From Bacteroidota bacterium (lineage in GTDB: Bacteria; Bacteroidota; Bacteroidia; Chitinophagales; Saprospiraceae), in NCBI GenBank assembly GCA_039028895.1, contig JBCCHF010000013.1, positions 4,360-68,359 of the forward strand: a stretch of DNA of 64,000 nt, written 5' to 3'. A program made the translations under genes and the position numbers. Shown here in pieces: positions 37,518 to 58,696 of the stretch. Within the stretch, counting starts at the first letter, position 1, and every line of letters starts with the position of its first letter. The notes beneath the pieces were generated by a model, which did not search any database, was not told where the DNA came from, and was given only the letters and a program-made list of their open reading frames with translations.

Positions 37518-38468
37518 ATGAAAAATTTTCTTAATCACCTTTATTTCAATGAATTGAAAAGGGGCATCATAGAGGTGATGCTTTATTTCGAGGTGTTTTC
37601 ATATCCAATGAGCCGTGAAGAAGTTTTTCGTACGGTTAATCAAATTAACACTAATCAGGATCAGGTCAATGCAGAAATTGATGAATTGATCAATGAATCC
37701 ATTATTTATGAAAATGGTGGTTTTCTCATGACCAGACCAAAACCTGAGTGGGCTGAAGAGCGAAAAATCAAGAATCGAATGGCAGATCAGTATATTGAAA
37801 AAGCATATCGCATGGGCCGCCTGATTGGGTACTTCCCCTTTGTGCGGGCTGTAATGATATCCGGTTCGCTGTCAAAACATTGGATGACAGAGGATGGTGA
37901 CGTTGATTTTTTTATCGTTACCGAAAAGAGAAGACTCTGGATCGCGCGCACCCTGCTCGTATTATTCAAAAAAATATTCCTGCTAAATTCACATAAGTAC
38001 TTCTGCGTGAACTATTTTGTGGATGTTGATCACCTGGAAATAGAAGAAAAGAACAGGTTCACAGCCTCAGAGATCGTTACGTTACTTCCAGTAGTCAACA
38101 AGCCATTGTATTTGGAATTTTTGAAAGCAAATCAATGGATCAGGGGTATTTACCCAAATTTCCCCGTAAGGGATACTAGTAATACTACACCACTTAAAGC
38201 TTCGCTGCCCAAACTGATTATAGAAAAAATGCTGTCAACCCGCTTTGGCGACTGGCTTGATCGCTCATTTCTAAAGATGACTCTGAAACACTGGAATAAA
38301 AAGTTTGGTCATATGGATAAGGAGGAATTTGAAGTAGCGATGAAATCAAGAACATATGTTTCAAAACATCATCCTAACGCATTTCAAGCCAGAGTGCTTG
38401 AGGCAATGGCTAATAACCAGGTTCAATTTGAAGCATCCATTCTAAAAAAGATGCCAATGAGAAGCTAA
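37518..38468 (+). CDS. Hypothetical protein with wHTH-like N-terminus and polymerase-beta-type nucleotidyltransferase-like motif
   Basis: 316 aa. MISGSLSKHWMTEDGDVDFFIVT fits the G-S...D-x-D nucleotidyltransferase signature. The N-terminal ~70 aa (YPMSREEVFRTV...IDELINESIIYENGGFL) look wHTH-like. It is the first gene of the rSAM operon. The assignment is weak. Confidence 0.4.
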   Translation: MKNFLNHLYFNELKRGIIEVMLYFEVFSYPMSREEVFRTVNQINTNQDQVNAEIDELINESIIYENGGFLMTRPKPEWAEERKIKNRMADQYIEKAYRMGRLIGYFPFVRAVMISGSLSKHWMTEDGDVDFFIVTEKRRLWIARTLLVLFKKIFLLNSHKYFCVNYFVDVDHLEIEEKNRFTASEIVTLLPVVNKPLYLEFLKANQWIRGIYPNFPVRDTSNTTPLKASLPKLIIEKMLSTRFGDWLDRSFLKMTLKHWNKKFGHMDKEEFEVAMKSRTYVSKHHPNAFQARVLEAMANNQVQFEASILKKMPMRS

Positions 38469-38501: not shown

Positions 38502-39968
38502 ATGGCAAATATTCTTTTTACCCACTCATATTTTTATCGATTTGACGAGAAGCAATGGGCTATGAAACAGCCATATCCGCCATATGGTACACTCTATGCT
38601 GCCGCAAAAATGCGGGAGGAGGGTCACCATGTAGCACTTTTTGACACTAACCTTGTGGTTTCTCCTGTTGAGATAAAGCCCATTCTGAAAAGTGAGCAAC
38701 CCGACTATCTGGTAATCTATGATGACGGGTTTAACTACCTGACTAAGATGTGCCTGACCAATATGCGGGAAGCTGCTTTTGAGTTGATCAAATTTGGTAA
38801 AGAAAACGCTTGTAAGGTAATTGTCTCGAGCTCTGATTCGACAGATCACCCTGATTTTTATCTTGAAAAAGGGGCTGATTTTATTCTTTTAGGAGAAGGA
38901 GAAGAAACGCTCAGTGAACTGGTCACAGCCATTGAGTCCGGCCAGCAGGATATGAGTTCTATTCTGGGTATTTGTTACCATTCCGAAACATTCGTTAAAA
39001 ATCCGAGAAGGCCCGTTATTCGCAATCTCGACAGCTTGCCTGACCCAGCATGGGATCTGGTAGATATCGATATGTATCGCAAGGTCTGGATGGAAGGAAA
39101 TGGATATTTTTCTTTAAATATTGCGACAACCAGGGGGTGCCCCTTTAAGTGTAATTGGTGTGCAAAACCCATTTATGGCAATCGATATAATTCCCGTTCA
39201 CCGGAAAGGGTAGCTAACGAAATCGAAATGCTGGTGTCAAAATTTGGTGCCCGCCATTTTTGGTTTAGTGATGATATATTCGGTTTAAAACCCGGATGGG
39301 TGCAATCGTTCAGAGATATTGTAAAGGCCAAAAATCTGCAGTTTAGCTATAAGATTCAGTCCAGGGTAGATTTGCTGCTTCAGGAAGATACGATCGCAGC
39401 ACTTGCTCAATCGGGTTTGAAAACCGTGTGGGTAGGTGCCGAATCAGGATCGCAGAAAATCCTCGATGCCATGGACAAAGGCACCAAGATCGAACAGATT
39501 TATGAAGCGACAGAATTACTGAAGCGCAAAGGTGTCGAGGTAGGATTTTTCCTTCAGTTTGGCTATCTCGGTGAAACAAGAGAAGATATTTCCAGTACTA
39601 TACAGATGGTGCTCGACTGCATGCCTGATGATATCGGGATATCTGTTTCTTACCCCTTGCCCGGCACCAAATTTTTCGAAATGGTGAAGGCCCAATTGGA
39701 TGACAAGCAAAACTGGTCGCACTCAGATGATCTGGCGATGATGTATAAAGGCACCTTCAGCCCTGATTTCTATCGACGTCTCCATCGGTTTGTCCATAAA
39801 ACATTCAGAAAACACCAGGGATTCGCAAATTTGAAAGGCATTTTAATGAACCCTACGGCAGTTAACCGATCTAAACTCAGGTCAGCGTTGGCTACAGTAT
39901 ATTATATCCCGGCAGCTGCCATCGACAATTACAAACTCAGACTTCTCGAAAAGCAAAGTGTTTCCTGA
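38502..39968 (+). CDS. B12-binding-domain radical SAM enzyme (rSAM-1)
   Basis: 488 aa. N-terminal cobalamin-binding-type Rossmann segment (ILFTHSYFYRFDEKQWAMKQPYPPYGTLYAAAKMREEGHHVALFD). CxxxCxxC cluster at C213/C217/C220 (TTRGCPFKCNWCAKP; tgc 39138..39140). Confidence 0.85.
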   Translation: MANILFTHSYFYRFDEKQWAMKQPYPPYGTLYAAAKMREEGHHVALFDTNLVVSPVEIKPILKSEQPDYLVIYDDGFNYLTKMCLTNMREAAFELIKFGKENACKVIVSSSDSTDHPDFYLEKGADFILLGEGEETLSELVTAIESGQQDMSSILGICYHSETFVKNPRRPVIRNLDSLPDPAWDLVDIDMYRKVWMEGNGYFSLNIATTRGCPFKCNWCAKPIYGNRYNSRSPERVANEIEMLVSKFGARHFWFSDDIFGLKPGWVQSFRDIVKAKNLQFSYKIQSRVDLLLQEDTIAALAQSGLKTVWVGAESGSQKILDAMDKGTKIEQIYEATELLKRKGVEVGFFLQFGYLGETREDISSTIQMVLDCMPDDIGISVSYPLPGTKFFEMVKAQLDDKQNWSHSDDLAMMYKGTFSPDFYRRLHRFVHKTFRKHQGFANLKGILMNPTAVNRSKLRSALATVYYIPAAAIDNYKLRLLEKQSVS

Positions 39969-40768
39969 TTATCAAAGCTGCTTTTGACCATATTGCCAAA
40001 GATTACGACCAGTCATTTTCCGATACTATAACGGGAAAACGACAGCGAGCACTTGTTCATGCCTACCTGGCAGAGTATTTTGTTGACATTCCCGGCCAAA
40101 AAGTGCTGGAGCTAAATTGCGGTACGGGTATAGATGCCTGCTGGATAGCGGCAAGAGGGCATACGGTTCTCGCAACTGATGTTTCAAAGGAAATGGTCAA
40201 TTTGACAGATATAAGAGTGGACCGCTTAGGGTTTGAAAAATATATTGATACCAGTGTTTGTGGGTTTTCCGAGATTCATACTTTGAATGACAAGGGCCCA
40301 TTCAATCTCATATTCTCTAATTTTGGAGGCTTGAATTGCATTGATTCGAATAGTATGGCTATGCTATCTATGGCATTACGAAAAATGCTTAAGCCTGGCG
40401 GCAGTCTCATCATAGTTTTGATGGGGCGTAAGTGTTGGTGGGAAAGCCTCTATTTTTTGTTAAAAGGCAACCCAAAAGAAGCATTTCGAAGGAAGAATGG
40501 AGGACCGGTTGAAGCAAATGTTGGAGACAAAAAGATCCTTACATGGTATTATGATCCGCAAGAATATTCAAACCTTTTTTCAAACCAATTCAAGACAAAA
40601 GTTATTAAACCTGTAGGCATTGCTTTACCGCCTTCCTACATGGATAGCATTTTTTCAAAAAGGAAATGGTTGATGAATTGGTTGACAAAATGTGAAAATA
40701 GGTTCCACAACAAATCTTACCTGGCCAAATGGTCGGACCATTACTTAATTCACCTTGAAGCGATCTGA
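39968..40768 (+). CDS. Class I SAM-dependent methyltransferase (MT-1; true start unclear, no ATG upstream of motif I)
   Basis: The ORF track starts at GTG 40103 (M/VLELNCGTG), which is motif I itself. The same frame is open back to 39965 and encodes IIKAAFDHIAKDYDQSFSDTITGKRQRALVHAYLAEYFVDIPGQK, a typical MTase N-terminus. The only candidate starts there are CTG 39965 and ATT 39968, which overlap the rSAM-1 TGA. Confidence 0.7.
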   Translation: MIKAAFDHIAKDYDQSFSDTITGKRQRALVHAYLAEYFVDIPGQKVLELNCGTGIDACWIAARGHTVLATDVSKEMVNLTDIRVDRLGFEKYIDTSVCGFSEIHTLNDKGPFNLIFSNFGGLNCIDSNSMAMLSMALRKMLKPGGSLIIVLMGRKCWWESLYFLLKGNPKEAFRRKNGGPVEANVGDKKILTWYYDPQEYSNLFSNQFKTKVIKPVGIALPPSYMDSIFSKRKWLMNWLTKCENRFHNKSYLAKWSDHYLIHLEAI

Positions 40769-42174
40769 TGGAGGTGTTGTTTACACATGGTTATTATATT
40801 GAGGAAGATCCGAAGGAGCAGGAGATCATGCGCCCTTACCCGCCTTTGGGTATTCTTTACCTGTCAGCGTGGCTGGAAAAGCATGGCGTTGATAATGAAG
40901 TGTACGACACTACATTTTCCAATAAAAAAGCGCATAAGGCATTTCTTGTCAAAAATAAACCCGGAATCCTCGCCATCTATACCAATCTGATGACCAAAGT
41001 CAATGTCATCGAATTGGTCAAATACATCAGGGCCGAACCTGATTTGAACGAAACCTTTATTGTCATAGGTGGACCTGACGTTACTTATAATATCGAAAAT
41101 TACCTGGGTTCAGGAGCGAATGTCATCGTTTTTGGAGAGGGTGAACAGACCATGCTCGAGATTGTAAACTCTGTCAAAAATGGGGTGCGGTCAGCGTTAT
41201 TCCACATTCCCGGGGTGGCATTCTTCGATGAAGGAGGTGATGTTGTAAAAACGGAAGCCAGGAAACGCATCCGCCCGGTAGACGGTCTGCCTATCCCTAA
41301 CAGGAAGAAGATTGACCTTAACAAATACCTGGAAGTCTGGAAAACACATCACGGTAAGAGTACTGTTTCAATCAGCACCCAAAGAGGATGTCCGTATACC
41401 TGCAGATGGTGTAGTACTGCTGTTTATGGACAGAGTTACAGACGTCGTTCCCCTGAAGTGGTCGTCTCTGAAATGAAATACCTGAAGGAAAACTATAACC
41501 CTGATAGCCTTTGGTTTGTGGATGATGTATTTACGGTCAGTCATAAATGGCTGAAAACTTTCAGAGATGCCTTGGAAAAAGCCAATATCAATATTCCTTT
41601 TGAATGTATAACCCGCGCAGATCGCCTTGACCCAGAAGTCATCAGCGTATTGAAAGCAAGTGGCTGTTTTCGGGTCTGGATTGGTGCTGAAAGTGGCTCA
41701 CAAAAAATCATAGATGCCATGGACAGGCGGGTAGATGTTAACCATGTCCGCAATATGATAATCGAAGCCAGGCAACAAGGACTTGAAGCCGGTACGTTCA
41801 TCATGTTAGGCTATCCCGGGGAAACCGAAACGGATATTTATGAAACGGTCAATCACCTAAAAATATCCAATCCCGATCTGTTCACAATAACAGTGGCTTA
41901 CCCGATTAAAGGAACAGGTCTTTACGAGGAAATTGAAGCCCAGCGCCTTAATAACCTGGATTGGCAAACCAGCACTGATCGCCAGATCGACTTTAAGCGG
42001 ACTTATCCAAGAAAGTATTATGATTACGCGGTACGGTGGGTGGTCAATTCGGTAAACTACAATAAACAGAAGTTGAATGGCAGACAATTGACTCCCCATG
42101 CATTGAAAATGCTTGCCAAAAGTTCCCTGGCCAGGGCAGGTATGATCTTTCATCGACAATTTGGCAAAGGATAG
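40768..42174 (+). CDS. B12-binding-domain radical SAM enzyme (rSAM-2, paralogue of rSAM-1)
   Basis: 468 aa. TGATG stop/start overlap at 40766..40770. N-terminus VLFTHGYYIEEDPKEQEIMRPYPPLGILYLSAWLEKHG parallels rSAM-1. Cluster C208/C212/C215 (STQRGCPYTCRWCST; tgt 41389..41391). Confidence 0.85.
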   Translation: MEVLFTHGYYIEEDPKEQEIMRPYPPLGILYLSAWLEKHGVDNEVYDTTFSNKKAHKAFLVKNKPGILAIYTNLMTKVNVIELVKYIRAEPDLNETFIVIGGPDVTYNIENYLGSGANVIVFGEGEQTMLEIVNSVKNGVRSALFHIPGVAFFDEGGDVVKTEARKRIRPVDGLPIPNRKKIDLNKYLEVWKTHHGKSTVSISTQRGCPYTCRWCSTAVYGQSYRRRSPEVVVSEMKYLKENYNPDSLWFVDDVFTVSHKWLKTFRDALEKANINIPFECITRADRLDPEVISVLKASGCFRVWIGAESGSQKIIDAMDRRVDVNHVRNMIIEARQQGLEAGTFIMLGYPGETETDIYETVNHLKISNPDLFTITVAYPIKGTGLYEEIEAQRLNNLDWQTSTDRQIDFKRTYPRKYYDYAVRWVVNSVNYNKQKLNGRQLTPHALKMLAKSSLARAGMIFHRQFGKG

Positions 42175-42177
42175 ATT

Positions 42178-42957
42178 ATGAAGGCTTTTCTTGAGAAATT
42201 TCCTGGAAATGGCGGTGTCTATTGCCTTTCAAAACCTGACAACAGTTTCGAAGACAGCTACATTGCTATTCGCAAAAAAGAGCAACGCGTCCTGTCTGAC
42301 GAGCAAGTCAGTCAATTACCCCGAGTGGATAGGTCTAATCCTCATTTTGACGAATGGCAAATCAGAAATCGTTCATTCGAGCGTGTCATCAATTATCTGA
42401 TGGATGATCCCAAAAGCCAACTACGGATTCTAGACCTGGGGTGCGGTAATGGCTGGTTTACCCACCGACTAGCTGCATTAGGCCATTTGGAAGTATTGGG
42501 CCTGGATATCAATATGATTGAATTGAAACAGGCTGCCAGGATCTTCACCACTGAGAAATGCCGTTTTGCCTACGGAGATATCGCTGTTTTGGACTTTGAT
42601 AACCTAAAGTTTGATCGCATTTTTCTGAATGCTTCAGTTCAATATTTCTCAAATCTTACCAGACTCCTCAAAAGGTTGTTAAACCTGCTCAACAAAGGAG
42701 GGGAGATTCATATTATCGATTCGCCATTTTATAAGTCTGTTGATATCCCCGCTGCAAAGGCACGTTCTTTTTCCTATTACAAAACCATGGGTTTTGAGAC
42801 TATGAGTACCAGCTATTTTCATCATAGTTTGGAAGAAATTAGCCAGTTTGATCCTTTCTATCTGTACCAACCATCCACTGGATTCAAGAAATTTTTGGAT
42901 AGATTTGGGAAAAAAGACACCCCGTTTCCATGGATCAGGATCTCAAAGGAAAATTAG
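42178..42957 (+). CDS. Class I SAM-dependent methyltransferase (MT-2)
   Basis: 259 aa, starting 3 nt after the rSAM-2 stop. Motif I is ILDLGCGNGWFTHRLA and the post-I acidic residue sits in VLGLDIN. Confidence 0.8.
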   Translation: MKAFLEKFPGNGGVYCLSKPDNSFEDSYIAIRKKEQRVLSDEQVSQLPRVDRSNPHFDEWQIRNRSFERVINYLMDDPKSQLRILDLGCGNGWFTHRLAALGHLEVLGLDINMIELKQAARIFTTEKCRFAYGDIAVLDFDNLKFDRIFLNASVQYFSNLTRLLKRLLNLLNKGGEIHIIDSPFYKSVDIPAAKARSFSYYKTMGFETMSTSYFHHSLEEISQFDPFYLYQPSTGFKKFLDRFGKKDTPFPWIRISKEN

Positions 42958-44462
42958 ACTTCACACTGCCGAATAGGGTGTTCATCACATTGGTTGTAAT
43001 GATTTTGGGTGTCAGGTTCTTACATTTTGGCGAATTGATTGATAATCCCCACGCCTGGAGGCAATGTGATACGGCAAACTATATTTTCGATTTTTTTAAA
43101 AATGGCATCGATATCTTTGAGCCTGCTGTATGCTGGATGGGGGCTCATAAGACCGTAATCCTTGAGTTCCCGTTACCGGAAGCTATGGTAGCTGTTTTCT
43201 ACCACGTTTTTGGAGAACATCATTGGGTCGCCCGGATGTTTTTCCTGCTGTGCTTTTGCGGAGCAGCCTATTATTTTTTTCTAATTATACTAGAACTTTT
43301 CGGTAAAACCAGGGCCAGGGTCGCTACTTTGATTTACCTTTCCCTACCATTGTCCATGTTTTATTCCAGAGCGATCCATATCGACTTCTTTGCTGTTTTT
43401 ATGGCGCATGGAATGTTTTTTCATTGGATGAAAGCCGTAAAAAATCAGGAGGCCAAGCATTGGATAGCAGGGGGTCTGTTTACTACTCTAGCATTTTTAG
43501 TAAAAGCACCTTATGCCTTTTTTCTCGCCTTGCCCCTTTTGATGATGGCAATACAGGAAAAACAGTTTGTTAAAAGTTTGAAGTGGACTTTTCTTTTAAT
43601 GTTGCCGATCATTCTATTTGTGCTTTGGCGTAGTTATGCTACCGGGGTAAACAGCTTGGCACCTGACTGGCATTACCTTGAAGCTTACCGCAAATTTGAT
43701 GAGAATACGTTCTGGTTTTTCGGCACTCTCGAACAACGACTTTCTTTATGGAATTGGCTAAGACTGGGTGAACGGCTGGCATTTGATGTCGTTGGTCATG
43801 CTGGGGTCTTGTTTGTCATTATTGGGTTTTTCCAGATGTGGTGGCTGAAACAGTACCCTTTTCTACTCGCATGGATGCTCGGGTTGTTGGTCTACTTATG
43901 TACCTTTTTTAACCTCAATCTGGTTCATGATTATTACCAAATCCCATTTTTACCAATTGCTTCTACCCTGATTACAATAGGCATTTTCTCCCTTTCGGGA
44001 AATGCAATGGTAGTCAGAATGAACATAAGTCGTTTTGCTTTTTTCGGGGGATTAGGCATCGTAATACTTGGCAATATCACTAATGCAGAACTGCGCTATT
44101 ATAAAACCGAAGATCAAAGGGTGCTTCAAGAAATAGGGGAGATCATAGAAGGGACAACCCCAACATCAGCGTTACCAGTAATCACCTATAATGATTTTGA
44201 TGTGCGTAATCCGCAAATCCTTTACCGAGCCAGAAGAAATGGTTGGTCAGTACCACTTCGAAACTGGAATGCAGAAGCCATAAACTTATTGACAGAAAAT
44301 GAAGGGGCTACACATTTTGTTTTTGTCGGTCCTGGTCCACCGGACGGGGCAATTGGGAAATTTACTCGGCGATTGAATTTGATTAATTCAACGAAACTGA
44401 ACAACACATATCTGAAAGTCTTTATTTGGACCCTATCGTATCAGGATGAAATTGAAAATTGA
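42930..44462 (+). CDS. Polytopic GT-C-fold glycosyltransferase, PMT_2/ArnT-like (polyprenyl-phosphate-sugar dependent)
   Basis: 510 aa with about 11-12 TM helices. The first periplasmic loop motif AWRQCDTANYIFDFF resembles the WRQxDTA motif of ArnT/PMT_2-type enzymes. A C-terminal soluble domain is present. It overlaps MT-2 by 28 nt. Confidence 0.6.
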   Translation: MDQDLKGKLDFTLPNRVFITLVVMILGVRFLHFGELIDNPHAWRQCDTANYIFDFFKNGIDIFEPAVCWMGAHKTVILEFPLPEAMVAVFYHVFGEHHWVARMFFLLCFCGAAYYFFLIILELFGKTRARVATLIYLSLPLSMFYSRAIHIDFFAVFMAHGMFFHWMKAVKNQEAKHWIAGGLFTTLAFLVKAPYAFFLALPLLMMAIQEKQFVKSLKWTFLLMLPIILFVLWRSYATGVNSLAPDWHYLEAYRKFDENTFWFFGTLEQRLSLWNWLRLGERLAFDVVGHAGVLFVIIGFFQMWWLKQYPFLLAWMLGLLVYLCTFFNLNLVHDYYQIPFLPIASTLITIGIFSLSGNAMVVRMNISRFAFFGGLGIVILGNITNAELRYYKTEDQRVLQEIGEIIEGTTPTSALPVITYNDFDVRNPQILYRARRNGWSVPLRNWNAEAINLLTENEGATHFVFVGPGPPDGAIGKFTRRLNLINSTKLNNTYLKVFIWTLSYQDEIEN

Positions 44463-52142: not shown

Positions 52143-52961
52143 ATGGATCTTTTTTCTGTCAAGGTTGGCTGGTATGATGCAAAATGTCGTTTGTTTAAAT
52201 GGTATCGAACGGTGAAAAACCGCTTTTCGCCTCCCAAATTATCCAAATTTTTATTCATTTTATGCCCACCGTATAGCGGATCAACCCTTTTACACGAAAT
52301 CATCTGCACTTCTCCTGTTGTCAGTCCCAACAATGTCTTTGGAACAAGAGAAGGACAGAGTCTTCCCGAAGTTCGCCGATTAATTGAATATACGAAAAGG
52401 TGGGAGCCAGAATATCCATACCCCTGGGAAGCCATAAAAGCTGCCTGGATGCCCTATTGGGAACACAGCAAATTGCTATTGCTTGATAAAAGTCCACCTA
52501 ATACATTTCGCGCGAAAGCTATTCAACATCATTTTGATCCTTCTGTTTTTATTGTGTTGACTCGTAATCCTTACGTATTATGCGAGTCGCTGATGCGTAA
52601 GAACAAATTATCCGCTGGCGAATCGGCAGGTATTGTCGTTCGTTTTCTGACGTATCAAAAAATGAATCTTGAACAATTGTCAGAAACCTTACTGATCAGG
52701 TATGAAGATCTGGTCGCCCACCCTGATTCTATTAAAGAGAACCTACTCGGTTTCCTGCCAGAATTATCGGCGATAAGTGTTCATAAAAAATTTAAAGGCC
52801 ACAACAAGGACAAGCAAAAGATACCAGTTACGGATTTAAATATTGGAAAAATTGAAAAGATCAAGGACCAGGAAATGGAGGAGATAAACGCAGTTTTTTC
52901 GCTTTACGGGGCATTGTTTTCCTATTTCAGTTATACCCTAATTCACGAAGCCGATCGATAA
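52143..52961 (+). CDS. Sulfotransferase-family protein
   Basis: 272 aa. The 5'-PSB-like loop FILCPPYSGSTLLHEI (P-x-x-G-S-T) and 3'-PB-like VLTRNPY fit PAPS-dependent sulfotransferases. Confidence 0.6.
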   Translation: MDLFSVKVGWYDAKCRLFKWYRTVKNRFSPPKLSKFLFILCPPYSGSTLLHEIICTSPVVSPNNVFGTREGQSLPEVRRLIEYTKRWEPEYPYPWEAIKAAWMPYWEHSKLLLLDKSPPNTFRAKAIQHHFDPSVFIVLTRNPYVLCESLMRKNKLSAGESAGIVVRFLTYQKMNLEQLSETLLIRYEDLVAHPDSIKENLLGFLPELSAISVHKKFKGHNKDKQKIPVTDLNIGKIEKIKDQEMEEINAVFSLYGALFSYFSYTLIHEADR

Positions 52962-53976
52962 CCTCATTGCCTATGATTGTCTGGCCAAAAGAATTTAGGT
53001 GAGGGTCATTTCCATAAAAGACCGGTGAGATTCTTTCTGCTTTTTGGAGTACAGGAAGTGTATTGATCATACTCAACCCTGGTCTTTCAAGTTTTGCTGA
53101 GAGCCTTTCCAGAAAAGGATAAATGATTTGCTGGTGATTTAGTTGTTCTTCAAATTTTGCCCCGATCTTCTCCATATTTGATTGGTACTGTGCACTAACT
53201 TGCGCACAATGCGGAATGACAACTATCAGAATGTTCTTCCCTGTGTCTACTTTATCTGTCAGGTCTTTTACTTTTTTAGCGTAAGCTTCAAAATCCTTTT
53301 CTCTCTTTCCGGACAGAAATACAGAATTACTGATTAATCGGGGTTCAGTCTGAAACTGTAACTTCACGCGTCTTGAATAAGTTGCAGGGTCATAATCAGC
53401 TAATGTTTTTGGATCAAATTCGACAGGAGAAGTATTTGCTACAGTTTGTCTGATGGCTGGCATCTTGGCGTTGATATATCCGATGACCCAGAGTCGATCG
53501 CTCAGCCACCAGTATACTTTTCGAATAGTAGAAATTGAGCTGCCTTTTGTCCTGTGTTTATATTCAAACAAGTCGTTGCCTACGTAAACCTGGTAGATAA
53601 CAACTCCAGGATCTACCTTTCGGAACCTTTTTCTGGCCATTAAACCCGATTGCTTAATCGTTGTTCCAGGCACAGCAGCATTAAAAACCCGGGTGTTTAA
53701 CAAACTGTCACGCAGGTGGCCCACATACCCAAGCGGATCGGCTGTAAACGAATCACCCAAGGCCAGCACTTTTGGATCTGAATCTTTCGAATAGGTTAGT
53801 TCATTTGGGTTCAACCCTTTAAAATTACCACCATAAAAATCGAAAATGTAAAGTCGGTAACAAGCTTCCAGCAAAAGGAGGACGGTAACACACAAAAAAC
53901 CGAAGTAAAGTATTACCCGAAAAAGCTTTTTAGCGCCTTTTTTTAAAAATGATGCCGGAAAATCCTGATTTTGCAT
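52927..53976 (-). CDS. Membrane-anchored SGNH/GDSL-family hydrolase-like protein
   Basis: 349 aa with an N-terminal TM helix. Block I is KVLALGDSFTADP and block V-like is GNDPHLNSFG. Its 3' end overlaps the sulfotransferase 3' end by 35 nt. Confidence 0.6.
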   Translation of the reverse strand: MQNQDFPASFLKKGAKKLFRVILYFGFLCVTVLLLLEACYRLYIFDFYGGNFKGLNPNELTYSKDSDPKVLALGDSFTADPLGYVGHLRDSLLNTRVFNAAVPGTTIKQSGLMARKRFRKVDPGVVIYQVYVGNDLFEYKHRTKGSSISTIRKVYWWLSDRLWVIGYINAKMPAIRQTVANTSPVEFDPKTLADYDPATYSRRVKLQFQTEPRLISNSVFLSGKREKDFEAYAKKVKDLTDKVDTGKNILIVVIPHCAQVSAQYQSNMEKIGAKFEEQLNHQQIIYPFLERLSAKLERPGLSMINTLPVLQKAERISPVFYGNDPHLNSFGQTIIGNEVIDRLRELGYN

Positions 53977-54008
53977 GCCTGAAATTAAGGAATTACCCTA
54001 ATCGGTTG

Positions 54009-55067
54009 ATGAAAAAACAGGATGAAAGACATATCCTTTGGCTGACGCCAGGTTTCCCGGTTGATGAATCAGATACAAGATGTATACCGCCACTTCAATC
54101 TTTGGCTATTGGTTTGCGTGATTGTTCTGGGGTGCGGCTGACTATCATTTCTTTACACTATCCATTTGAAAAAAAACGGTATTTGTGGAATGATATCCCC
54201 GTGCATGCATGCGGGGCAAGTAATCGACCACTTGTCCTTCGATTGCCGATCTGGAAAAAAGTGATAGACATCGCAAAGGCTATAAACAAGGAACATCCAA
54301 TTGATCAAATCCATTCATTCTGGCTGTCGGAATGTGCGTGGCTGGGTCAAAAACTCCATCACCGATTTTCAAAACCCCATTTGGTCACCCTAATGGGGCA
54401 GGAAGGGCTAAAAGGAAATGTTTACGAGCCCTGGATACATCTTGAAAAATTAAAAATTGCGGCCATCTCGCCATACCAGTTTGCATTATTCGAGAAAAGA
54501 AAAAAAAGAAAACCTGACCATATCATCCCATGGGGAATAGACCGGGAAAACTTACCCCTTTTGGGGAATGCTGAACGTGAAATAGACATTTTAGGGGTTG
54601 GTTCGTTGATAGCGCTTAAAGACTTTAAGACTTTTATTCGGATTGTGGCAAACATGAAAAAAGAAAAGCCAGATCTCAAATGTGCTTTGGTTGGTGATGG
54701 GGTGGAAAAAAAAGAATTGGAAAAAATGGCTAATGATCTTGGACTTGCAGATTGCCTGAAATTTCACGGCTTGGTTTCCAGGGAAATGGTTTTTCGGTTA
54801 ATGGCAAAAAGTCGTTGCTTGTTGCATCCGTCTCAATATGAGTCATTTGGAATGGTTTTTTTGGAAGCGTTGGCCTCTGGAATGCATATTGTCTCTCGAG
54901 AAATTGGCATTGCCCGTAAAATGGACCAATGGACAATTGGTGACAACTTGGAAGAATTAGAAGCAGGAGTCAAGAAAATTTTGGGAAAAACTAACCAATC
55001 TTCCGTAATTTTATTCGATCAGGAATCAACGGTAAAAACCTATGTCGATCTTTACCGTATAATGTAA
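54009..55067 (+). CDS. GT4-family (GT-B fold) glycosyltransferase
   Basis: The ORF is 53949..55067. The Met at 54009 (MKKQDERHILWLTPGFP) is preferred. E-x7-E region: QYESFGMVFLEALASGMHIV. Confidence 0.8.
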   Translation: MKKQDERHILWLTPGFPVDESDTRCIPPLQSLAIGLRDCSGVRLTIISLHYPFEKKRYLWNDIPVHACGASNRPLVLRLPIWKKVIDIAKAINKEHPIDQIHSFWLSECAWLGQKLHHRFSKPHLVTLMGQEGLKGNVYEPWIHLEKLKIAAISPYQFALFEKRKKRKPDHIIPWGIDRENLPLLGNAEREIDILGVGSLIALKDFKTFIRIVANMKKEKPDLKCALVGDGVEKKELEKMANDLGLADCLKFHGLVSREMVFRLMAKSRCLLHPSQYESFGMVFLEALASGMHIVSREIGIARKMDQWTIGDNLEELEAGVKKILGKTNQSSVILFDQESTVKTYVDLYRIM

Positions 55068-56617
55068 TGAAACATAGCCGGGCCATTAATCCGGTGCCTC
55101 ATTTTATGAAAGTCATTCTCTTCAACCCCAGGTCTGCGTACGCCAAGCACCGGATACCGAACAGTATTCTACAGGTTGGAGCGTCTATTCATGATAAATA
55201 TGATTATGTTTTCGTAGACGGTAACCGTGAAGAAGATCCCTGGGTGAAGATTAAAAGTTATCTTGATACTGGAGAATATAAGGTTTTCGGAACCACAGTA
55301 ATGCCTGGGCCTCAATTGTCGCAAGCTATTCCATACGCAAAAAAGGTAAGAGAGCAATACCCAGGTGTGTTCAATATCTGGGGTGGTTATTTTGCTGCCA
55401 ATCAACATAAGGTTGTGCTTAACTCAGGGTTTGTTGATTTTGTAGTTAATGGCCCTGGCGACAAGGCATTCCCTGAATTGCTGGATGCCATAAATGACAA
55501 TAAACCTTATGAGTTTATCTCCAATCTGATTTATAAGACCGCGGAAGGTGCTATCGTCAAAACTAATAAAAACGCATTGCTTGACCAGGATGCTTTACCA
55601 AGATTGCCCTACACTTACCTTGAGCAATTCTACCCAATCAAGGATTACCTGGGGAAGACGTTTATGGGCTCAAAAACCATTTCTTATCATTCCAGCATTG
55701 GTTGTCCGTTCAAGTGCTCATTTTGTGCTGTAGTACCGATTTACGAAGCACGCTGGCGCGGCAAATCAGCTCAGAATATCTACGCTGATATCTCAATGCT
55801 GCGCGAAAAGTATGGTGCCAATGCTATTGAGTTTCATGACAATAATTTTTTCGTTTCCGAAAAACGGGTAGCAGAATTCTCCAGACTGATCATGAATGAT
55901 AATATGCAATGGTGGGGAGAGGGCAGAATAGATACGATCGACAGATACAGTGATGAGTCACTTGAACTCATGCGAAAAGCAGGATGTCGAATGATCTTTT
56001 TTGGAGCGGAAAGCGGTAACGACGAGATATTAAAGCAAATGGACAAAGGCGGAAAACAGACTGCCGCCCAGATCAAAGCATTTGCCGCAAGGCTGAAAAA
56101 GTTTGATATCGTTCCTGAATACTCCTTTGTACTGGGAATGCCAGCCAAAACTCCAGAAAAAGTAATGGCCCAGATCGATGCCGATATCAATTTTATTAAA
56201 CAGATCAAGGCAATCAATCCAAATACGGAAATTATCATTTACGTTTACAGTCCGGTACCTACAGAGGGTTCCGAGCTTTACAAAAGGATAACAGAAGCAG
56301 GTTTCAGTTTTCCAGTCAAACTTGAAGACTGGCTTGAACCGGCATGGGCAAATTTCGACCTACGAAAAAATCCATTAACACCATGGCTTACCCCGGAAAT
56401 GGTAGATAAGATCAAAGATTTTGAGACCGTTCTCAATGCATTTTACCCAACGGCATCCGATTTTAAATTAAGCGGTTTCCAAAAGAAAGTCATGAAGACC
56501 TTGTCTGGTTTCCGTTACCGGAATAATATCTTCAAATACCCTTACGAACTCAAAGCACTTCAAAAATACTGGTTAAAGTATCGTCAACCCGAAATCGAAG
56601 GCTTCTATGCTGAGTAG
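55067..56617 (+). CDS. B12-binding-domain radical SAM enzyme (rSAM-3)
   Basis: 516 aa. TAATG overlap with the GT4 stop (alternative Met at 55106, MKVILFNPRS). Cluster C213/C217/C220 (SSIGCPFKCSFCAV; tgt 55703..55705). Confidence 0.85.
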   Translation: MKHSRAINPVPHFMKVILFNPRSAYAKHRIPNSILQVGASIHDKYDYVFVDGNREEDPWVKIKSYLDTGEYKVFGTTVMPGPQLSQAIPYAKKVREQYPGVFNIWGGYFAANQHKVVLNSGFVDFVVNGPGDKAFPELLDAINDNKPYEFISNLIYKTAEGAIVKTNKNALLDQDALPRLPYTYLEQFYPIKDYLGKTFMGSKTISYHSSIGCPFKCSFCAVVPIYEARWRGKSAQNIYADISMLREKYGANAIEFHDNNFFVSEKRVAEFSRLIMNDNMQWWGEGRIDTIDRYSDESLELMRKAGCRMIFFGAESGNDEILKQMDKGGKQTAAQIKAFAARLKKFDIVPEYSFVLGMPAKTPEKVMAQIDADINFIKQIKAINPNTEIIIYVYSPVPTEGSELYKRITEAGFSFPVKLEDWLEPAWANFDLRKNPLTPWLTPEMVDKIKDFETVLNAFYPTASDFKLSGFQKKVMKTLSGFRYRNNIFKYPYELKALQKYWLKYRQPEIEGFYAE

Positions 56618-57296
56618 CAAAACAAGGACTACCTGGCGAAACAGGCTAAAAAGAATTGTTTTCCCCATCCTCGAAAAATGGTATCAAGGCTATAGTCAGA
56701 AAGAACGCACCTACAAATTCAAAGGATTGCGGGTAACCGTTCCGCCGACGGTGTTCCATCCGGGAGTATTTTTAAGTACGAAGATCTTTGCCAATTTCCT
56801 TGATAAGCTCGAGCTTCATGGTGCGAAGTTACTTGAACTGGGCTGTGGCAGTGGGCTATTGTCATTATATGCCTCCAAACGAGGCGCTGAAGTTACGGCA
56901 ACCGACATTAATCCGATCGCCATTAACGGATTAATCCACAGTAGTATCCAGAATGGTTTGAACATAGCGGCTCTTGAATCCGACTTGTTTGCGGACATTC
57001 CTGTTCAAATATTTGATTACATCCTGATCAATCCACCATACTACCCCAAAACACCAACCAGTTATAAGGAGCGTGCTTTTTATTGTGGGGTAGATTTCGA
57101 ATATTTCCACGCCCTCTTCCTTCAAATGCCTGCTTATATAAAAGAAGATTCAGAGGTGTACATGATCTTGTCAGAAGATTGTGATATTGAAAAAATTCTT
57201 CATATCGCTAAGGACAATAAATTCGAATTCAAGGAGGTACATCGCCAATCCAGGCGATGGGAAATGAATTATGTTTTTCAGCTGAGCTTCTGTTGA
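56607..57296 (+). CDS. NPPY-motif SAM methyltransferase (HemK/PrmC / RsmC-like small-domain type)
   Basis: 229 aa, with an 11-nt overlap with rSAM-3. Motif I is LLELGCGSGLLSLYASKRGAEVTATDIN. Motif IV is ILINPPYYP. Confidence 0.75.
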   Translation: MLSSKTRTTWRNRLKRIVFPILEKWYQGYSQKERTYKFKGLRVTVPPTVFHPGVFLSTKIFANFLDKLELHGAKLLELGCGSGLLSLYASKRGAEVTATDINPIAINGLIHSSIQNGLNIAALESDLFADIPVQIFDYILINPPYYPKTPTSYKERAFYCGVDFEYFHALFLQMPAYIKEDSEVYMILSEDCDIEKILHIAKDNKFEFKEVHRQSRRWEMNYVFQLSFC

Positions 57297-58696
57297 GGCA
57301 CCAGTTTTTCGTAAACCAGTTTTTCAATCGGCATAGCAAAGAAATTCATCTTGCATCTCAGTTGTGCTATGGCTTGTAATGGCTTGGTTAGAATATTCTG
57401 TCTTCTGCCTGCTACCTTGTTGTAAAACTTGAAGCGCTCAATCAACTCAAACTTGGCTTTACTGACCCACGGACCAGAGGACCCGATGTAATCGAAATCG
57501 GACCATTCACTAAGCGTTTGTGGTAGTTGATAACCTTTAGCGACAACATCCTGAGTGATCTTTGAGCCGGGATAAGGCTTAAAGTAGAAAATAGGTGTAG
57601 TAAAGAGCGGATGCATGGAGTTAAGCTCCAGCGCAGTTTTTAAGGTCGACCGGACACTATCTTCCGATTCACCAGGAAATCCAACAATAAAAGGGAAAAT
57701 AACGGCAATATCTCTTTCAGCACACCGTCGTGCCGTATCGTAGACCTGTTCAATCTTGATATCTTTCATGAGCCAGTCCATCATCTCCTGTGAGCCAGAC
57801 TCCACGCCTACCAACACTCTGCGTAGTCCTGACTTTTTACATAAGTCAAATTCTTCCTCCTTGAGGCGGAACCCCTGGTCGGCACGCATGGTCCCTGCCC
57901 AGGTAGTTTGGAGGTTTCGATTAATGAATTCTTCGGAAATGGCGACTACACGTTTTCTTTTGGTAAAGAAAGTCTCATCCTGAAAATTGATATCTGTGAA
58001 GTTGAATTTTTTCTTCCAGAACTCAAGTTCTTCACCCATCCTTTCCGGTTGGAGAGCCGTCCAGCCTCTTTTATACACAAAAGGGTCAGCACAAAATGTA
58101 CATCTGAATCGGCAACCGGCAGATGAGATATAATCGAATTGCCGGTTTTTCTTGAATTTGAAATAATTCTCAACTTTTATCAGGTCATAATTTACCGTAG
58201 GGAAAAAGTTAACATCTTGTAGGGGTCTTCCCAGGTTTTTAACGATCCCACCATCTGCATTGCGATAAGTAATACCTTTTACATCATCAAATTCACCACC
58301 TTCAGCGACTCGATTTACGATTTCAACAAAAGTCTCTTCTCCCTGGGCTTGCACGCTAATGTCGATAGCGGGTTCATCCCTTAGTGTTTCTGTCGGGAAA
58401 AGGGATGGATGCCATCCGCCCCATACGATTGTTAAACTTGGGAATTTGGCTTTTACTGCCCGGGTAACTTTTACAGCATCTTTTAAAGGAGCACCTGTAA
58501 GTGCTGTTACACCGAAACAAATAGCATCATCACAGGCTTCCAGCACTTTTTTCAACGGTGATTTGTCGACGCGGCCGTCTACTATTATGACTTCATACCG
58601 TTTTGGGTCAAGGCAAGACCCAATTGCCAGTAAAGCCAACGGCATATCATAAAATACCGAAACTGGATTATAGAGGACTACTTTCTTTTTCGTCAT
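57278..58696 (-). CDS. B12-binding-domain radical SAM enzyme (rSAM-4, paralogue of rSAM-3)
   Basis: 472 aa. N-terminus KKVVLYNPVSVFYDMPLALLAIG...VIIVDGR parallels rSAM-3. Cluster SSAGCRFRCTFCADP. Its 3' end overlaps the NPPY methyltransferase by 19 nt. Confidence 0.85.
   Translation of the reverse strand: MTKKKVVLYNPVSVFYDMPLALLAIGSCLDPKRYEVIIVDGRVDKSPLKKVLEACDDAICFGVTALTGAPLKDAVKVTRAVKAKFPSLTIVWGGWHPSLFPTETLRDEPAIDISVQAQGEETFVEIVNRVAEGGEFDDVKGITYRNADGGIVKNLGRPLQDVNFFPTVNYDLIKVENYFKFKKNRQFDYISSAGCRFRCTFCADPFVYKRGWTALQPERMGEELEFWKKKFNFTDINFQDETFFTKRKRVVAISEEFINRNLQTTWAGTMRADQGFRLKEEEFDLCKKSGLRRVLVGVESGSQEMMDWLMKDIKIEQVYDTARRCAERDIAVIFPFIVGFPGESEDSVRSTLKTALELNSMHPLFTTPIFYFKPYPGSKITQDVVAKGYQLPQTLSEWSDFDYIGSSGPWVSKAKFELIERFKFYNKVAGRRQNILTKPLQAIAQLRCKMNFFAMPIEKLVYEKLVPQQKLS

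Follow-up and report, generated by a model that had tools for sequence, protein, structure and literature searches.

We analyzed a window of 64,000 nucleotides, i.e., the whole stretch of DNA considered here, from a member of the Saprospiraceae. The first gene of the set under study, GT4b (54009..55067, plus strand), encodes a GT4-family glycosyltransferase; the mechanical ORF begins at 53949, and the probable start at 54009, with MKKQDERHILWLTPGF, is favored by the first residues of GT4 homologues, MRVLWITPGF. The stop codon of GT4b and the start codon of rSAM3 have one base in common (TAATG). The rSAM3 gene (55067..56617, plus strand; 516 aa) encodes a radical SAM enzyme of the B12-binding type (class B-like), with the cluster motif CPFKCSFC, SSIGCPFKCSFC. 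It overlaps by 11 nt the gene of the NPPY methyltransferase (56607..57296, plus strand; 229 aa), a HemK2/MTQ2-like class I SAM enzyme that has DYILINPPYYPK with the invariant NPPY and is the only ORF over 100 aa in the window in which [NDS]PP[YFW] was found. Another B12-binding radical SAM enzyme, rSAM4 (57278..58696, minus strand; 472 aa; CRFRCTFC, SSAGCRFRCTFC), is encoded convergently, and its 3' end overlaps that of the methyltransferase by 19 nt. The coordinates, overlaps and motifs of the original prediction all agree with our recheck of the window sequence. The four genes are real and more than a chance assemblage, because the ORFs are long, the family E-values are strong and synteny is kept across phyla. 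The 19-nt convergent overlap is not kept among relatives: a gap of 30 nt is found in locus L124 and an overlap of 9 nt in locus L126.

The window holds another cassette, which starts with hyp316 (37518..38468, plus strand), a protein with a winged helix and a minimal nucleotidyltransferase fold that has 4897 homologues and no Pfam match at E<0.001. In its AF2 model (pLDDT 90.9), the nucleotidyltransferase core alone resembles MNT/ANT structures, with no match at E<1e-3. It is followed, on the same strand, by the B12-binding radical SAM gene rSAM1 (38502..39968; best match BchE, 159.6 versus a cut-off of 481), the class I methyltransferase gene MT221 (39971..40768; Methyltransf_25), a second B12-binding radical SAM gene, rSAM2 (40768..42174; best match PhpK family, 157.4 versus a cut-off of 600), the class I methyltransferase gene MT259 (42178..42957) and a gene for a PMT_2/ArnT-like GT-C glycosyltransferase (42930..44462; PF13231, 56.1 bits). 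The start of MT221 probably lies upstream of its first canonical start codon at 40103: the Pfam alignment opens at residue 2, and homologues align from 39971-39983, where ATG, GTG and TTG are all absent. Immediately before GT4b are genes for a sulfotransferase, a presumed accessory tailoring enzyme (52143..52961, plus strand; PF13469, 47.1 bits), and for hyp349 (52927..53976, minus strand), a conserved accessory membrane-anchored protein that is SGNH-like by motif and has no Pfam match. The glycan genes of the window comprise the PMT_2 GT-C, two GT4, the sulfotransferase, SGNH/AlgX-like proteins and Wzy_C proteins; a DprE1-like and phosphoribosyltransferase-like pair and T9SS cargo are also encoded. 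The family matches of these neighbors bear out the envelope-glycan surroundings proposed earlier.

Two pairs of radical SAM enzymes and a HemK2-like methyltransferase

GT4b matches Glycos_transf_1 (PF00534, 84.8 bits) and is below every NCBIfam cut-off; indeed, no gene of the system reaches the cut-off of any curated family. For the Radical_SAM domain (PF04055), rSAM3 scores 54.6 bits and rSAM4 71.3 bits; the B12-binding domain (PF02310) scores 46.1 bits in rSAM4 and 25.3 bits in rSAM3, below the gathering score of 32.1. Pairwise BLASTP gives full-length matches within pairs (266 bits for rSAM1 and rSAM2; 180 bits for rSAM3 and rSAM4) and matches of 85-116 bits, restricted to the core, between pairs. 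In a neighbor-joining tree, 123 B12-type radical SAM enzymes from related loci form four orthogroups, with groups 1 and 2 (45 sequences) and groups 3 and 4 (78 sequences) each monophyletic. Both analyses confirm that the island holds two paralogous pairs, as had been proposed, and the predicted N-terminal pattern common to rSAM3 (KVILFNPRS...VFVDG) and rSAM4 (KVVLYNPVS...IIVDG) is visible in the translations. Judged by sequence, rSAM4 is an orthogroup of its own, sister to rSAM3; the best 120 clusters listed among its matches are 58-71% identical.

The best NCBIfam match of both enzymes is HpnJ (125.2 bits for rSAM3 and 159.6 bits for rSAM4), the cut-off of which, 577.6, is 3.6 to 4.6 times these scores, so that neither enzyme reaches the cut-off of a characterized family; membership in one unrelated to envelope biosynthesis would have spoken against the original prediction. 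In a PDB sequence search, AprD4 was the best match of both, and OxsB was second for rSAM4. It should be noted that HpnJ and AprD4 are non-methylases, which speaks against methylation, and that all of these matches are remote. The methylase models PhpK, ApyD and HpnR score rSAM3 and rSAM4 about as well as HpnJ does; therefore, the sequences cannot tell a methylase from a non-methylase. Cobalamin-dependent radical SAM enzymes are mostly C-methylases, including the sugar-modifying GenK, GenD1, Fms7 and MoeK5, whereas for HpnJ, BchE and OxsB a function other than methylation is established (PMC9204698).

The NPPY methyltransferase matches MTS (PF05175, 50.3 bits) and lies below the NCBIfam cut-offs for TIGR00537 (72.2 versus 87 bits) and for PrmC, TIGR03534 (48.7 versus 199.1 bits). 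The best structures found by Foldseek with its AF2 model (pLDDT 88.9) are N6AMT1/HemK2 (TMt 0.80), GenN and 9l4q (TMq 0.73); the family profile also matches an apramycin N-methyltransferase, and it aligns with HemK structures over the methyltransferase core only. The NPPY motif is kept in 77 of the 78 family members. Taken together, these results corroborate the proposed amino-methyltransferase (HemK-type) fold, and the protein is HemK2/N6AMT1-like, not PrmC. As side observations, GenN is a sugar N-methyltransferase and 9l4q a carbamoyl N-methyltransferase; NCBI names the family simply "methyltransferase", and some JGI records carry the automatic name "release factor glutamine methyltransferase". 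N-methylation had been called odd for a glycan locus; however, the HemK-family N-methyltransferases AprI and GenN act on amino sugars (PMC9338882), and 9l4q is among the best structures.

A modular system in the FCB group

An NPPY-anchored survey of 185,579 species representatives gave at least 401 species matches, in FCB lineages (Flavobacteriales, Saprospiraceae, other Bacteroidota, Ignavibacteriales and Calditrichaceae). A B12-type radical SAM ORF is the immediate same-strand upstream neighbor of NPPY in 66 of 78 loci, with a gap of at most 30 nt in 53 of these and an overlap in 35. In about 70 of 80 genome loci, the gene directly 5' of NPPY is an orthologue of rSAM3 (58-74% identity), and NPPY comes next in 25 of the 34 rSAM3-anchored metagenome loci with room downstream. 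The co-occurrence analysis suggested earlier thus finds the pair preserved in both surveys, in line with the predicted functional link: rSAM3 and NPPY are the core of the system and are mostly translationally coupled. Against a single module, rSAM3 lacks an adjacent NPPY in the remaining 9 of 34 metagenome loci, and NPPY occurs without rSAM3 in four loci (L002, L003, L070 and L075). Where it occurs, rSAM4 usually adjoins the pair, as in nine loci (L018, L028, L038, L055, L071, L073, L074, L103 and L124); in one genome (L126), it converges on NPPY with no rSAM3 nearby, and in L125 it is joined to the rSAM1/2 cassette.

In other genomes, rSAM3, NPPY and often GT4 share one operon with the cassette hyp316-rSAM1-MT-rSAM2-MT and a GT-C glycosyltransferase. 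The ignavibacterial order is hyp316-rSAM1-MT221-rSAM2-MT259-GT4b-SPASM rSAM-rSAM3-NPPY-GT87 (L007, L008, L010, L011 and L019), with a SPASM radical SAM gene between the GT4b orthologue and rSAM3. The set had been called a second one; it is not independent, as this single operon shows: the four genes are one module of a widespread modular system that also holds the first cassette. Identities in related loci are 50-64% for rSAM1, with which hyp316 is co-located, 52-64% for rSAM2 and 35-48% for MT259. About 27 of 80 loci have a GT4b orthologue (31-43% identity) no more than 10 kb from NPPY; in L067, L082, L083, L108 and L111 it is located immediately 5' of rSAM3. Orthologues of hyp349 (28-47% identity) are present in about 23 of 80 loci as well as in L124 and L126. 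GT-C proteins (PMT_2-like or GT87) are present in most related loci. L124 has the layout of the window, including the convergent rSAM4, and a sulfotransferase copy (45% identical) adjoining rSAM3; in many Flavobacteriaceae loci, the sulfotransferase family is found immediately 5' of rSAM3. The Flavobacteriaceae loci further contain GT2, GT87, a Wzx-like protein, a carbamoyltransferase, a sulfotransferase and FkbM, and lie beside rplM-rpsI-rpsB-tsf, a stable chromosomal place across many genera. The SPASM radical SAM, GT2 and Wzx-like genes of related loci are absent from the window. Our literature search found no paper describing this system.

Proposed function and alternatives

Somewhat better than even, in our judgment, are the chances that GT4b, rSAM3, NPPY and rSAM4 form a module of an envelope-glycoconjugate tailoring system conserved in FCB-group lineages. 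Such a system most likely decorates a cell-surface sugar or glycolipid by means of B12-dependent radical enzymes and a HemK2-like N-methyltransferase. Going by its family, GT4b would act on the cytoplasmic side and transfer sugar from a nucleotide-sugar donor to a carrier- or lipid-bound intermediate. The cobalamin-type rSAM3 would abstract hydrogen at an unactivated carbon of this sugar, or of the aglycone, and most probably add a methyl group there, a C-methylation of the kind that GenK, GenD1 and MoeK5 carry out on sugars. The fold and the invariant NPPY suggest that the methyltransferase acts on a nitrogen of the same intermediate; this could belong to the amine of an amino sugar or to a primary amide (a uronamide or an O-carbamoyl group, for example). 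Paralogy and context are consistent with rSAM4 catalyzing a reaction of the same type, either at another position or on a variant of the substrate. Further steps on the same molecule may fall to the first cassette (nucleotidyltransferase-like protein, rSAM1, MT, rSAM2, MT). GT-C enzymes (PMT_2 or GT87) would install the finished unit after its outward movement, and sulfation, carbamoylation, O-methylation and acylation would be lineage-specific additions. We infer the C- and N-methylation of a sugar from folds and neighbors. Of the N-methylation in concert with radical chemistry, as originally predicted, the link between rSAM3 and NPPY stands, while the N-methylation itself still belongs to what we infer. 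Against it, the compact ignavibacterial operon has no obvious aminotransferase, amidotransferase, deacetylase or carbamoyltransferase as a source of the nitrogen substituent.

A fairly unlikely alternative in the same envelope-glycoconjugate setting is that rSAM3 and rSAM4 are non-methylating enzymes that catalyze a sugar rearrangement or dehydration, and that NPPY N-methylates the resulting amino(cyc)litol. The models are HpnJ, which turns a glucosamine head group into an aminocyclitol by ring contraction, OxsB, and AprD4, a diol dehydratase. These non-methylases are the best or second-best matches given above, the substrate of HpnJ is a glucosamine installed by a glycosyltransferase, GT4 lies near in related loci, and a polysaccharide deacetylase is also nearby in some lineages. 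However, the HpnJ cut-off is far off, methylase models score alike, the class consists mostly of methylases, and hopanoid genes are absent.

The target could also be a protein or peptide, in which case a proteusin-like hypermodification toolkit would act on a surface or secreted protein that carries glycans as well. The B12-type enzymes would then be C-methyltransferases comparable to PoyB/C, the SPASM enzyme would be akin to PoyD, and NPPY would N-methylate Gln or Asn side-chain amides in the manner of PoyE. In structure, NPPY comes closest to methyltransferases that act on protein Gln or Lys (HemK2/KMT9, PrmC and PrmA), and HemK2 itself acts on protein Gln or Lys, not on sugars, which speaks against a sugar substrate. 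The NCBIfam RiPP models ApyD and rSAM_ocin_1 and the model for the MCR glutamine C-methyltransferase match about as strongly as the others, and T9SS cargo and PMT_2-type GT-C enzymes, able to glycosylate proteins, are nearby. Conversely, across 80 loci the core is joined by no conserved small ORF or precursor; the sole small ORF that recurs encodes a membrane peptide, DUF5989/SxtK-like, which goes with the carbamoyltransferase. A protease, a RiPP recognition protein and a leader-peptide transporter are all absent, and the neighbors are mainly glycan genes (GT4, GT2, GT87, Wzx-like, sulfo- and carbamoyltransferases); we consider a protein target improbable.

The toolkit resembles the pathways that make gentamicin and apramycin, which likewise combine GT4 glycosyltransferases, B12-type radical C-methylases and HemK-family N-methyltransferases (GenN and AprI; PMC9338882). 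Together with AprD4 as the closest PDB match and the ANT-like core of hyp316, this might indicate that the product is not part of the envelope but a diffusible secondary metabolite, either aminoglycoside-like or a pseudo-oligosaccharide. We regard this as very doubtful: GT-C, Wzx-like, O-antigen-ligase-like and SGNH/AlgX-type acyltransferase proteins suggest lipid-linked periplasmic assembly, neither a 2-deoxy-scyllo-inosose synthase nor an aminotransferase nor an exporter was seen, and the stable place in Flavobacteriaceae is unlike that of a mobile biosynthetic gene cluster. Finally, that NPPY is the release-factor glutamine methyltransferase (PrmC/HemK) of the genome, placed here by chance, is extremely improbable despite its motif and the automatic JGI names: it scores far below the PrmC cut-off, lacks the PrmC N-terminal domain at 229 aa, has a patchy distribution and a noncommittal NCBI name, and is linked with rSAM3 within glycan loci, with one ignavibacterial MAG carrying two copies, each within a full operon (L007 and L008).

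Gene organisation and conservation of the module

The module comprises four genes, and our ORF calls agreed with the original prediction on the coordinates of all of them. The glycosyltransferase gene GT4b, which a mechanical ORF call places at 53949-55067 (+), encodes a PF00534 (Glycos_transf_1) domain with 84.8 bits against a gathering score of 26.4, and missed the cut-offs of the NCBIfam equivalogs (best, 55.6 vs. 409). It should be noted that the start proposed earlier for this gene, 54009, which carries MKKQDERHILWLTPGF, is likelier because the homologues begin at 'MRVLWITPGF'; this start also does away with the overlap with the gene at 52927-53976 (-) that encodes hyp349, a membrane-anchored SGNH-like protein. 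The radical SAM gene rSAM3 (55067-56617, +), carrying SSIGCPFKCSFC, starts within a TAATG junction with the GT4 stop. It overlaps by 11 nt the gene of the NPPY methyltransferase (56607-57296, +; 229 aa), which carries DYILINPPYYPK, scores 50.3 bits for MTS and is the sole carrier of the [NDS]PP[YFW] motif among the window ORFs longer than 100 aa. The 3' end of rSAM4 (57278-58696, -), carrying SSAGCRFRCTFC, overlaps the 3' end of the methyltransferase gene by 19 nt. The NPPY methyltransferase, rSAM4 and hyp316 each match, at 100% identity, proteins encoded on a 130.9-kb contig of a Bacteroidota MAG, and a Logan contig also contains an identical stretch. A promoter and terminator scan of 52.8-60.1 kb gave counts of 23 and 9, close to the 15.1±4.3 and 6.9±3.1 of shuffled sequence, the scan not being built for Bacteroidota promoters.

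Using one genome per GTDB species, we found a relative of the NPPY methyltransferase in at least 401 species among 185,579 representatives. The family occurs in FCB lineages and in glycan loci, and this FCB-only spread, together with the glycan loci, argues against a housekeeping role. The best 80 loci came from Flavobacteriales, Saprospiraceae and Lewinellaceae, other Bacteroidota, Ignavibacteriales and Calditrichaceae, and public data hold roughly 1,900 to 4,900 clusters of proteins for each component. This typically Bacteroidota locus also occurs in L016 and L071, two MAG records under the title 'uncultured Bifidobacterium sp.', of which the taxonomic labels or the bins are probably wrong.

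The co-occurrence of rSAM3 and the NPPY methyltransferase, which had been suggested as a check, was found to be tight and conserved. An rSAM3 orthologue (58-74% identity) lies directly upstream of NPPY in about 70 of the 80 best loci, and in our own ORF calls a B12-type radical SAM ORF was the adjacent same-strand upstream gene in 66 of 78 loci; the gap was 30 nt or less in 53 of these 66, and the genes overlapped in 35. The reverse test on metagenome contigs, anchored on rSAM3, placed NPPY directly downstream in 25 of the 34 loci with room for it.

The original prediction described these genes as a second set. However, the neighbouring genes in related loci show that this set and the first set of the window (37.5-44.5 kb) belong together. 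For example, a single compact operon of Ignavibacterial genomes (L007, L008, L010, L011, L019) contains hyp316, rSAM1, the methyltransferase MT221, rSAM2 and MT259, and then GT4b, a SPASM radical SAM gene, rSAM3, NPPY and GT87, so that rSAM3 and NPPY share an operon with a GT4, a GT-C and the rSAM1/2 cassette. MAG JADJIH01 (Ignavibacteriales) has all ten genes of this operon twice, in near-identical form, on separate contigs (L007 and L008), as a result of either duplication or strain heterogeneity in the bin. In Flavobacteriaceae, rSAM3-NPPY stands at the end of the cluster, usually beside rplM-rpsI-rpsB-tsf, and the additional genes encode a DPM1-like GT2, a GT87 GT-C, a Wzx-like membrane protein, FkbM, a NodU/CmcH carbamoyltransferase with SxtJ- and SxtK-like partners, sulfotransferases and SGNH proteins.

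The rSAM4 gene is normally found beside rSAM3-NPPY (L018, L028, L038, L055, L071, L073, L074, L103), and L124 repeats the layout of the window, convergent rSAM4 included. In L126, rSAM4 is convergent with NPPY and rSAM3 is absent within 10 kb; in L125 (Aquimarina sp. M1), rSAM4 is joined to the rSAM1/2 cassette, without NPPY or rSAM3. Thus, the system is modular. The convergent overlap of 19 nt is not a conserved feature: at the same junction, L124 has a gap of 30 nt and L126 an overlap of 9 nt.

The neighbourhood of the module is that of envelope glycan genes. The window contains a PMT_2 GT-C (42930-44462, +; PF13231, 56.1 bits), two GT4 enzymes, a sulfotransferase, SGNH/AlgX-like proteins and FkbM, and has no SPASM radical SAM, GT2, Wzx-like or carbamoyltransferase genes. 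GT-C enzymes (PMT_2 or GT87) were found in most loci, a DPM1-like GT2 with a multi-TM Wzx-like protein in many Flavobacteriaceae loci, a polysaccharide deacetylase in some related loci, and a NodU/CmcH-type carbamoyltransferase in related FCB loci.

Radical SAM enzymes and the NPPY methyltransferase

The enzymes of the module are identified at the superfamily level, every family-specific cut-off tested having been missed. For PF04055 (Radical_SAM), rSAM3 scored 54.6 bits and rSAM4 71.3 bits, and the cluster motif CxxxCxxC (CPFKCSFC in rSAM3, CRFRCTFC in rSAM4) was kept in 127 of 130 related ORFs. The B12-binding domain PF02310 exceeded the gathering score of 32.1 in rSAM4 (46.1 bits) and fell below it in rSAM3 (25.3 bits), in which a reading of the sequence revealed no DxHxxG motif; rSAM3 aligns with rSAM4 over its full length, and with the B12-type radical SAM models of NCBIfam from about residue 26-90.

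Two paralogous pairs, as proposed earlier, were recovered by both comparisons that we performed. BLASTP gave 266 bits for rSAM1/2 and 180 bits for rSAM3/4 over the full length, versus only 85-116 bits, in the core only, for the cross-pairs. A neighbour-joining tree of 123 B12-type radical SAM enzymes from related loci contained four orthogroups, with 1+2 and 3+4 each monophyletic. The orthogroup of rSAM4 is separate and well conserved (58-71% identity in the best 120 clusters among the matches listed).

Membership of rSAM3 and rSAM4 in a characterised family had also been considered; the NCBIfam cut-offs were all missed. The top model for both enzymes was HpnJ (TIGR03471), with 125.2 and 159.6 bits, respectively, against a cut-off of 577.6. 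The closest solved structures by sequence were AprD4, OxsB, TokK and TsrM, every match being remote, and AprD4, a non-methylase, was the nearest solved relative of both. The missed curated cut-offs and the remote structure matches suggest that rSAM3 and rSAM4 are uncharacterised branches of the B12-type radical SAM class.

In the NPPY methyltransferase, INPPYYPK occupies residues 141-148 and is invariant in A1, our alignment of NPPY homologues; LSEDC and Cys160 are also invariant in A1, and the NPPY motif is present in 77 of 78 family members. The single member with APPY instead, from a Bacteroidales MAG (L013, 10001-10642), adjoins the most divergent rSAM3 orthologue (49% identity), and because of these two features the L013 module may be diverging or decaying. 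Of the family models, HemK2/MTQ2 (TIGR00537) came closest but narrowly missed its cut-off (72.2 vs. 87 bits), and the related model PRK14968.1-3 gave 99.1 vs. 162.

The AF2 model (mean pLDDT, 88.9) has a single N-terminal helix plus hairpin ahead of the Rossmann fold. The best fold matches in Foldseek were N6AMT1/HemK2/KMT9 (6k0x, 6ped), with E ~1e-13, TMt of 0.79-0.80 and rmsd of 2.8 Å; the carbamoyl N-methyltransferase Asc-Orf2 (9l4q) had the highest TMq (0.73), and GenN, the gentamicin 3''-N-methyltransferase, was matched as well. PrmC ranked only 25th. The family profile matches an apramycin-biosynthesis N-methyltransferase. With HemK chains, it aligns only from about residue 88-107 on, i.e., in the methyltransferase core, and its alignment with solved HemK2 spans NPPY and the downstream E..AW.(C/G)G segment.

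HemK2/MTQ2/N6AMT1 is the archaeal and eukaryotic release-factor glutamine methyltransferase, also known as KMT9. The NPPY methyltransferase resembles it in fold (TMt 0.80), in NPPY with the E..AW.(C/G)G segment, and in the compact size of ~200-230 aa without the N-terminal domain of PrmC. However, the NPPY methyltransferase is bacterial, has the extra helix plus hairpin, the invariant LSEDC and Cys160, and its gene is coupled to that of a radical SAM enzyme within glycan loci and does not lie with translation factors. The original prediction regarded such an enzyme as odd in a glycan locus, but AprI, a 7'-N-methyltransferase of the HemK family, has an amino sugar as its substrate, and GenN, which has NSPT in place of NPPY, has been placed in the same family (PMC9338882). 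Therefore, a HemK-type enzyme in sugar chemistry has precedent.

Proposed function and alternatives

We favour, with modest confidence, a picture in which rSAM3, rSAM4 and the HemK2-like enzyme modify a sugar or glycolipid intermediate and a GT-C transfers the product. GT4b would build the intermediate, and rSAM3 would modify an unactivated carbon of it, with rSAM4 as a paralogous second activity; the HemK2-like enzyme would N-methylate this same molecule at an amine or primary amide, and the product would be exported and then transferred by GT-C enzymes. By analogy, C-methylation would be the most probable reaction of rSAM3 and rSAM4, because most cobalamin-dependent radical SAM enzymes (Cbl-rSAMs) methylate, several of them (GenK, GenD1, Fms7, MoeK5) acting on sugars (PMC9204698). 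Full-text literature searches yielded no description of this gene system, only background on AprI/GenN and on Cbl-rSAM classes (PMC9204698, PMC13459092).

Much more tentatively, the product could be a novel, B12-dependent envelope component shared by Flavobacteriia, Saprospiria, Ignavibacteria and Calditrichia. Three to four cobalamin radical SAM enzymes would then remodel its core unit, the head group of a sugar or glycolipid, through multiple C-methylations and possibly a rearrangement that forms a carbocycle. The HemK2-like enzyme, recruited in evolution from the methylation of protein glutamine, would cap the unit by methylating an amide or amine borne by a sugar. In these largely B12-auxotrophic marine and soil bacteria, surface chemistry would accordingly rely on cobalamin from outside.

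The main alternative for the chemistry, which we consider rather unlikely, is a rearrangement or dehydration similar to those of HpnJ, OxsB or AprD4. The methylase models PhpK, ApyD and HpnR score just behind HpnJ on rSAM3 and rSAM4, and sequence does not tell whether the chemistry is that of a methylase or of a non-methylase. The HpnI-HpnK-HpnJ pathway is similar to the present system in having a glycosyltransferase beside a B12-type radical SAM enzyme whose top curated model is HpnJ, and a deacetylase, as found in some related loci; this parallel would imply a lipid-linked amino sugar as the substrate (PMC9204698). However, we observe a GT4 and three to four radical SAM enzymes with three methyltransferases, whereas the known pathway has one radical SAM enzyme; rSAM3 and rSAM4 are far below the HpnJ cut-off, and there are no hopanoid genes among the scanned window ORFs or in related loci.

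A protein or RiPP as the target is improbable, given that the core has glycan genes as neighbours and lacks an accompanying precursor-like ORF; a test for a proteusin-type RiPP pathway yielded no precursor gene, and no conserved small ORF is linked to the core in 80 loci.

We consider a diffusible, aminoglycoside-like product still more doubtful. Aminoglycoside tailoring (GenK/GenD1, GenN, AprI, AprD4) also combines a B12-type radical SAM enzyme, a HemK-family N-methyltransferase and a GT4 acting on sugars. However, the matches are remote (E of 1e-6 to 1e-11, 19-20% identity), cyclitol and aminotransferase genes are absent, and the context, unlike that of an actinomycete antibiotic cluster, is envelope assembly (GT-C, Wzy_C, SGNH, sulfotransferase). 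Both the stable chromosomal location and the presence of GT-C, Wzy_C and SGNH genes are against such a product.

A housekeeping PrmC, the reading against which the original prediction had warned, is rejected as very improbable: TIGR03534 gave 48.7 bits against a cut-off of 199.1, the N-terminal helical substrate-binding domain of PrmC (total, ~280 aa) is absent from the 229-aa protein, the spread is patchy, the context is glycan genes, and the gene is duplicated within one MAG (L007, L008). No PrmC-like ORF happens to be present in the scanned genome loci L002-L081 or in the window.

Modification of a sugar or glycolipid intermediate, the reading that we favour, has further partial parallels. 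MoeK5 is listed as a Cbl-rSAM that C-methylates a lipid-linked sugar (PMC9204698). Moenomycin unit-F formation would be similar in Cbl-rSAM C-methylation, and related FCB loci carry a NodU/CmcH-type carbamoyltransferase; however, the window itself has no carbamoyltransferase. MoeM5 is a carbamoyltransferase and MoeF5 an amidotransferase, and unit F carries carbamoyl and carboxamide nitrogen. A carbamoyl N-methyltransferase is among the top structural matches of the NPPY methyltransferase, whereas we know of no N-methylation step in moenomycin.

The three-component glycosylation of the Gtr/Arn type has a GT-C in common with the window, which, however, lacks the GT2 and Wzx-like genes and has in their place a pair of genes for a DprE1-like FAD oxidase and a UbiA protein (45736-47963, -; NF053785, 406.9 vs. 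500; UbiA, 204.9 vs. 207 and 208.7 vs. 234). We know of no radical SAM enzymes in Gtr/Arn systems. The UbiA protein is decaprenyl-phosphate phosphoribosyltransferase-like. The pair, which recurs in L076 and L083, resembles a pathway to a polyprenyl-phospho-pentose (arabinose-type) donor, here in a Bacteroidota genome, and presumably supplies the PMT_2 GT-C; we noticed no DprE2-like reductase.

Judged by its gene content, the system appears to be a mixture of aminoglycoside, Hpn, moenomycin and Gtr/Arn features and a member of none. The proposed tailoring of sugars by radical SAM enzymes and methyltransferases would here be embedded in the envelope assembly of FCB-group bacteria. If our reading holds, a biosynthetic system of at least 401 species employs three or four cobalamin radical SAM enzymes in envelope glycan or glycolipid assembly, a setting in which, to our knowledge, hopanoid and archaeal lipid head groups are almost the sole known cases of such enzymes. 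The components open to enzymological study include four new orthogroups of Cbl-rSAMs in a defined genetic context, a HemK2-like methyltransferase of bacteria, probably with a small molecule as its substrate, and a novel nucleotidyltransferase-fold protein (hyp316) without a Pfam family. B12 availability would be linked to the surface structure of abundant marine Flavobacteriia, and this could bear on phage and grazer recognition, T9SS cargo anchoring and the search for methylated-sugar biomarkers. The function that we infer opens a testable question on B12-dependent surface chemistry.

Other genes of the window and of related loci

Two Wzy_C (O-antigen-ligase/PglL-like) proteins, one of them fused to TPR repeats, are encoded at 28205-29668 (+) and 29655-31529 (-). 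The former has orthologues (family f40, 40-44% identity) in Crocinitomicaceae-type loci, where they adjoin hyp349 and a polysaccharide deacetylase. A CotH kinase-like protein of 842 aa (24661-27189, -) lies between regulatory genes and the Wzy_C genes. Two tandem T9SS paralogues of ~875 aa (31681-34305 and 34610-37237, -), immediately upstream of the rSAM1/2 cassette, have a C-terminal T9SS sorting domain as well as SprB repeats and may be acceptors or neighbours of the glycan system.

The cassette is headed by hyp316 (37518-38468, +), which has 4,897 homologues and a confident AF2 model (pLDDT, 90.9). Pfam, NCBIfam, PHROGs, a PDB profile search and Foldseek yielded no functional assignment; the recognisable parts are a minimal nucleotidyltransferase core, resembling MNT, ANT and AadA, and a winged helix ahead of it at the N-terminus. 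The protein hyp316 may represent a new family of nucleotidyltransferases for small molecules. A homologue in a 'Phycisphaerae' MAG is solitary, with no radical SAM genes.

For MT221, the methyltransferase between rSAM1 and rSAM2, homologues align from ~39971, whereas the first in-frame ATG/GTG/TTG is at 40103 (region 39968-40103, +); either the true start is non-canonical (CTG, ATT or ATC just after the rSAM1 stop) or there is a sequence error.

In related loci (L004, L015, L018, L124 and ~17 others), the carbamoyltransferase is in every case joined by a conserved 49-aa membrane ORF (DUF5989, SxtK-like) and an SxtJ-like protein; this set corresponds to the SxtI/J/K trio of saxitoxin, put to new use in a glycan locus. 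A conserved lipoprotein-like protein of ~372 aa (family p372; L039, L024, L030 and others), absent from the window, is encoded behind rSAM2 in Flavobacteriaceae; it has no Pfam family, and the representative examined carries CxxCH (KCMWCHES).
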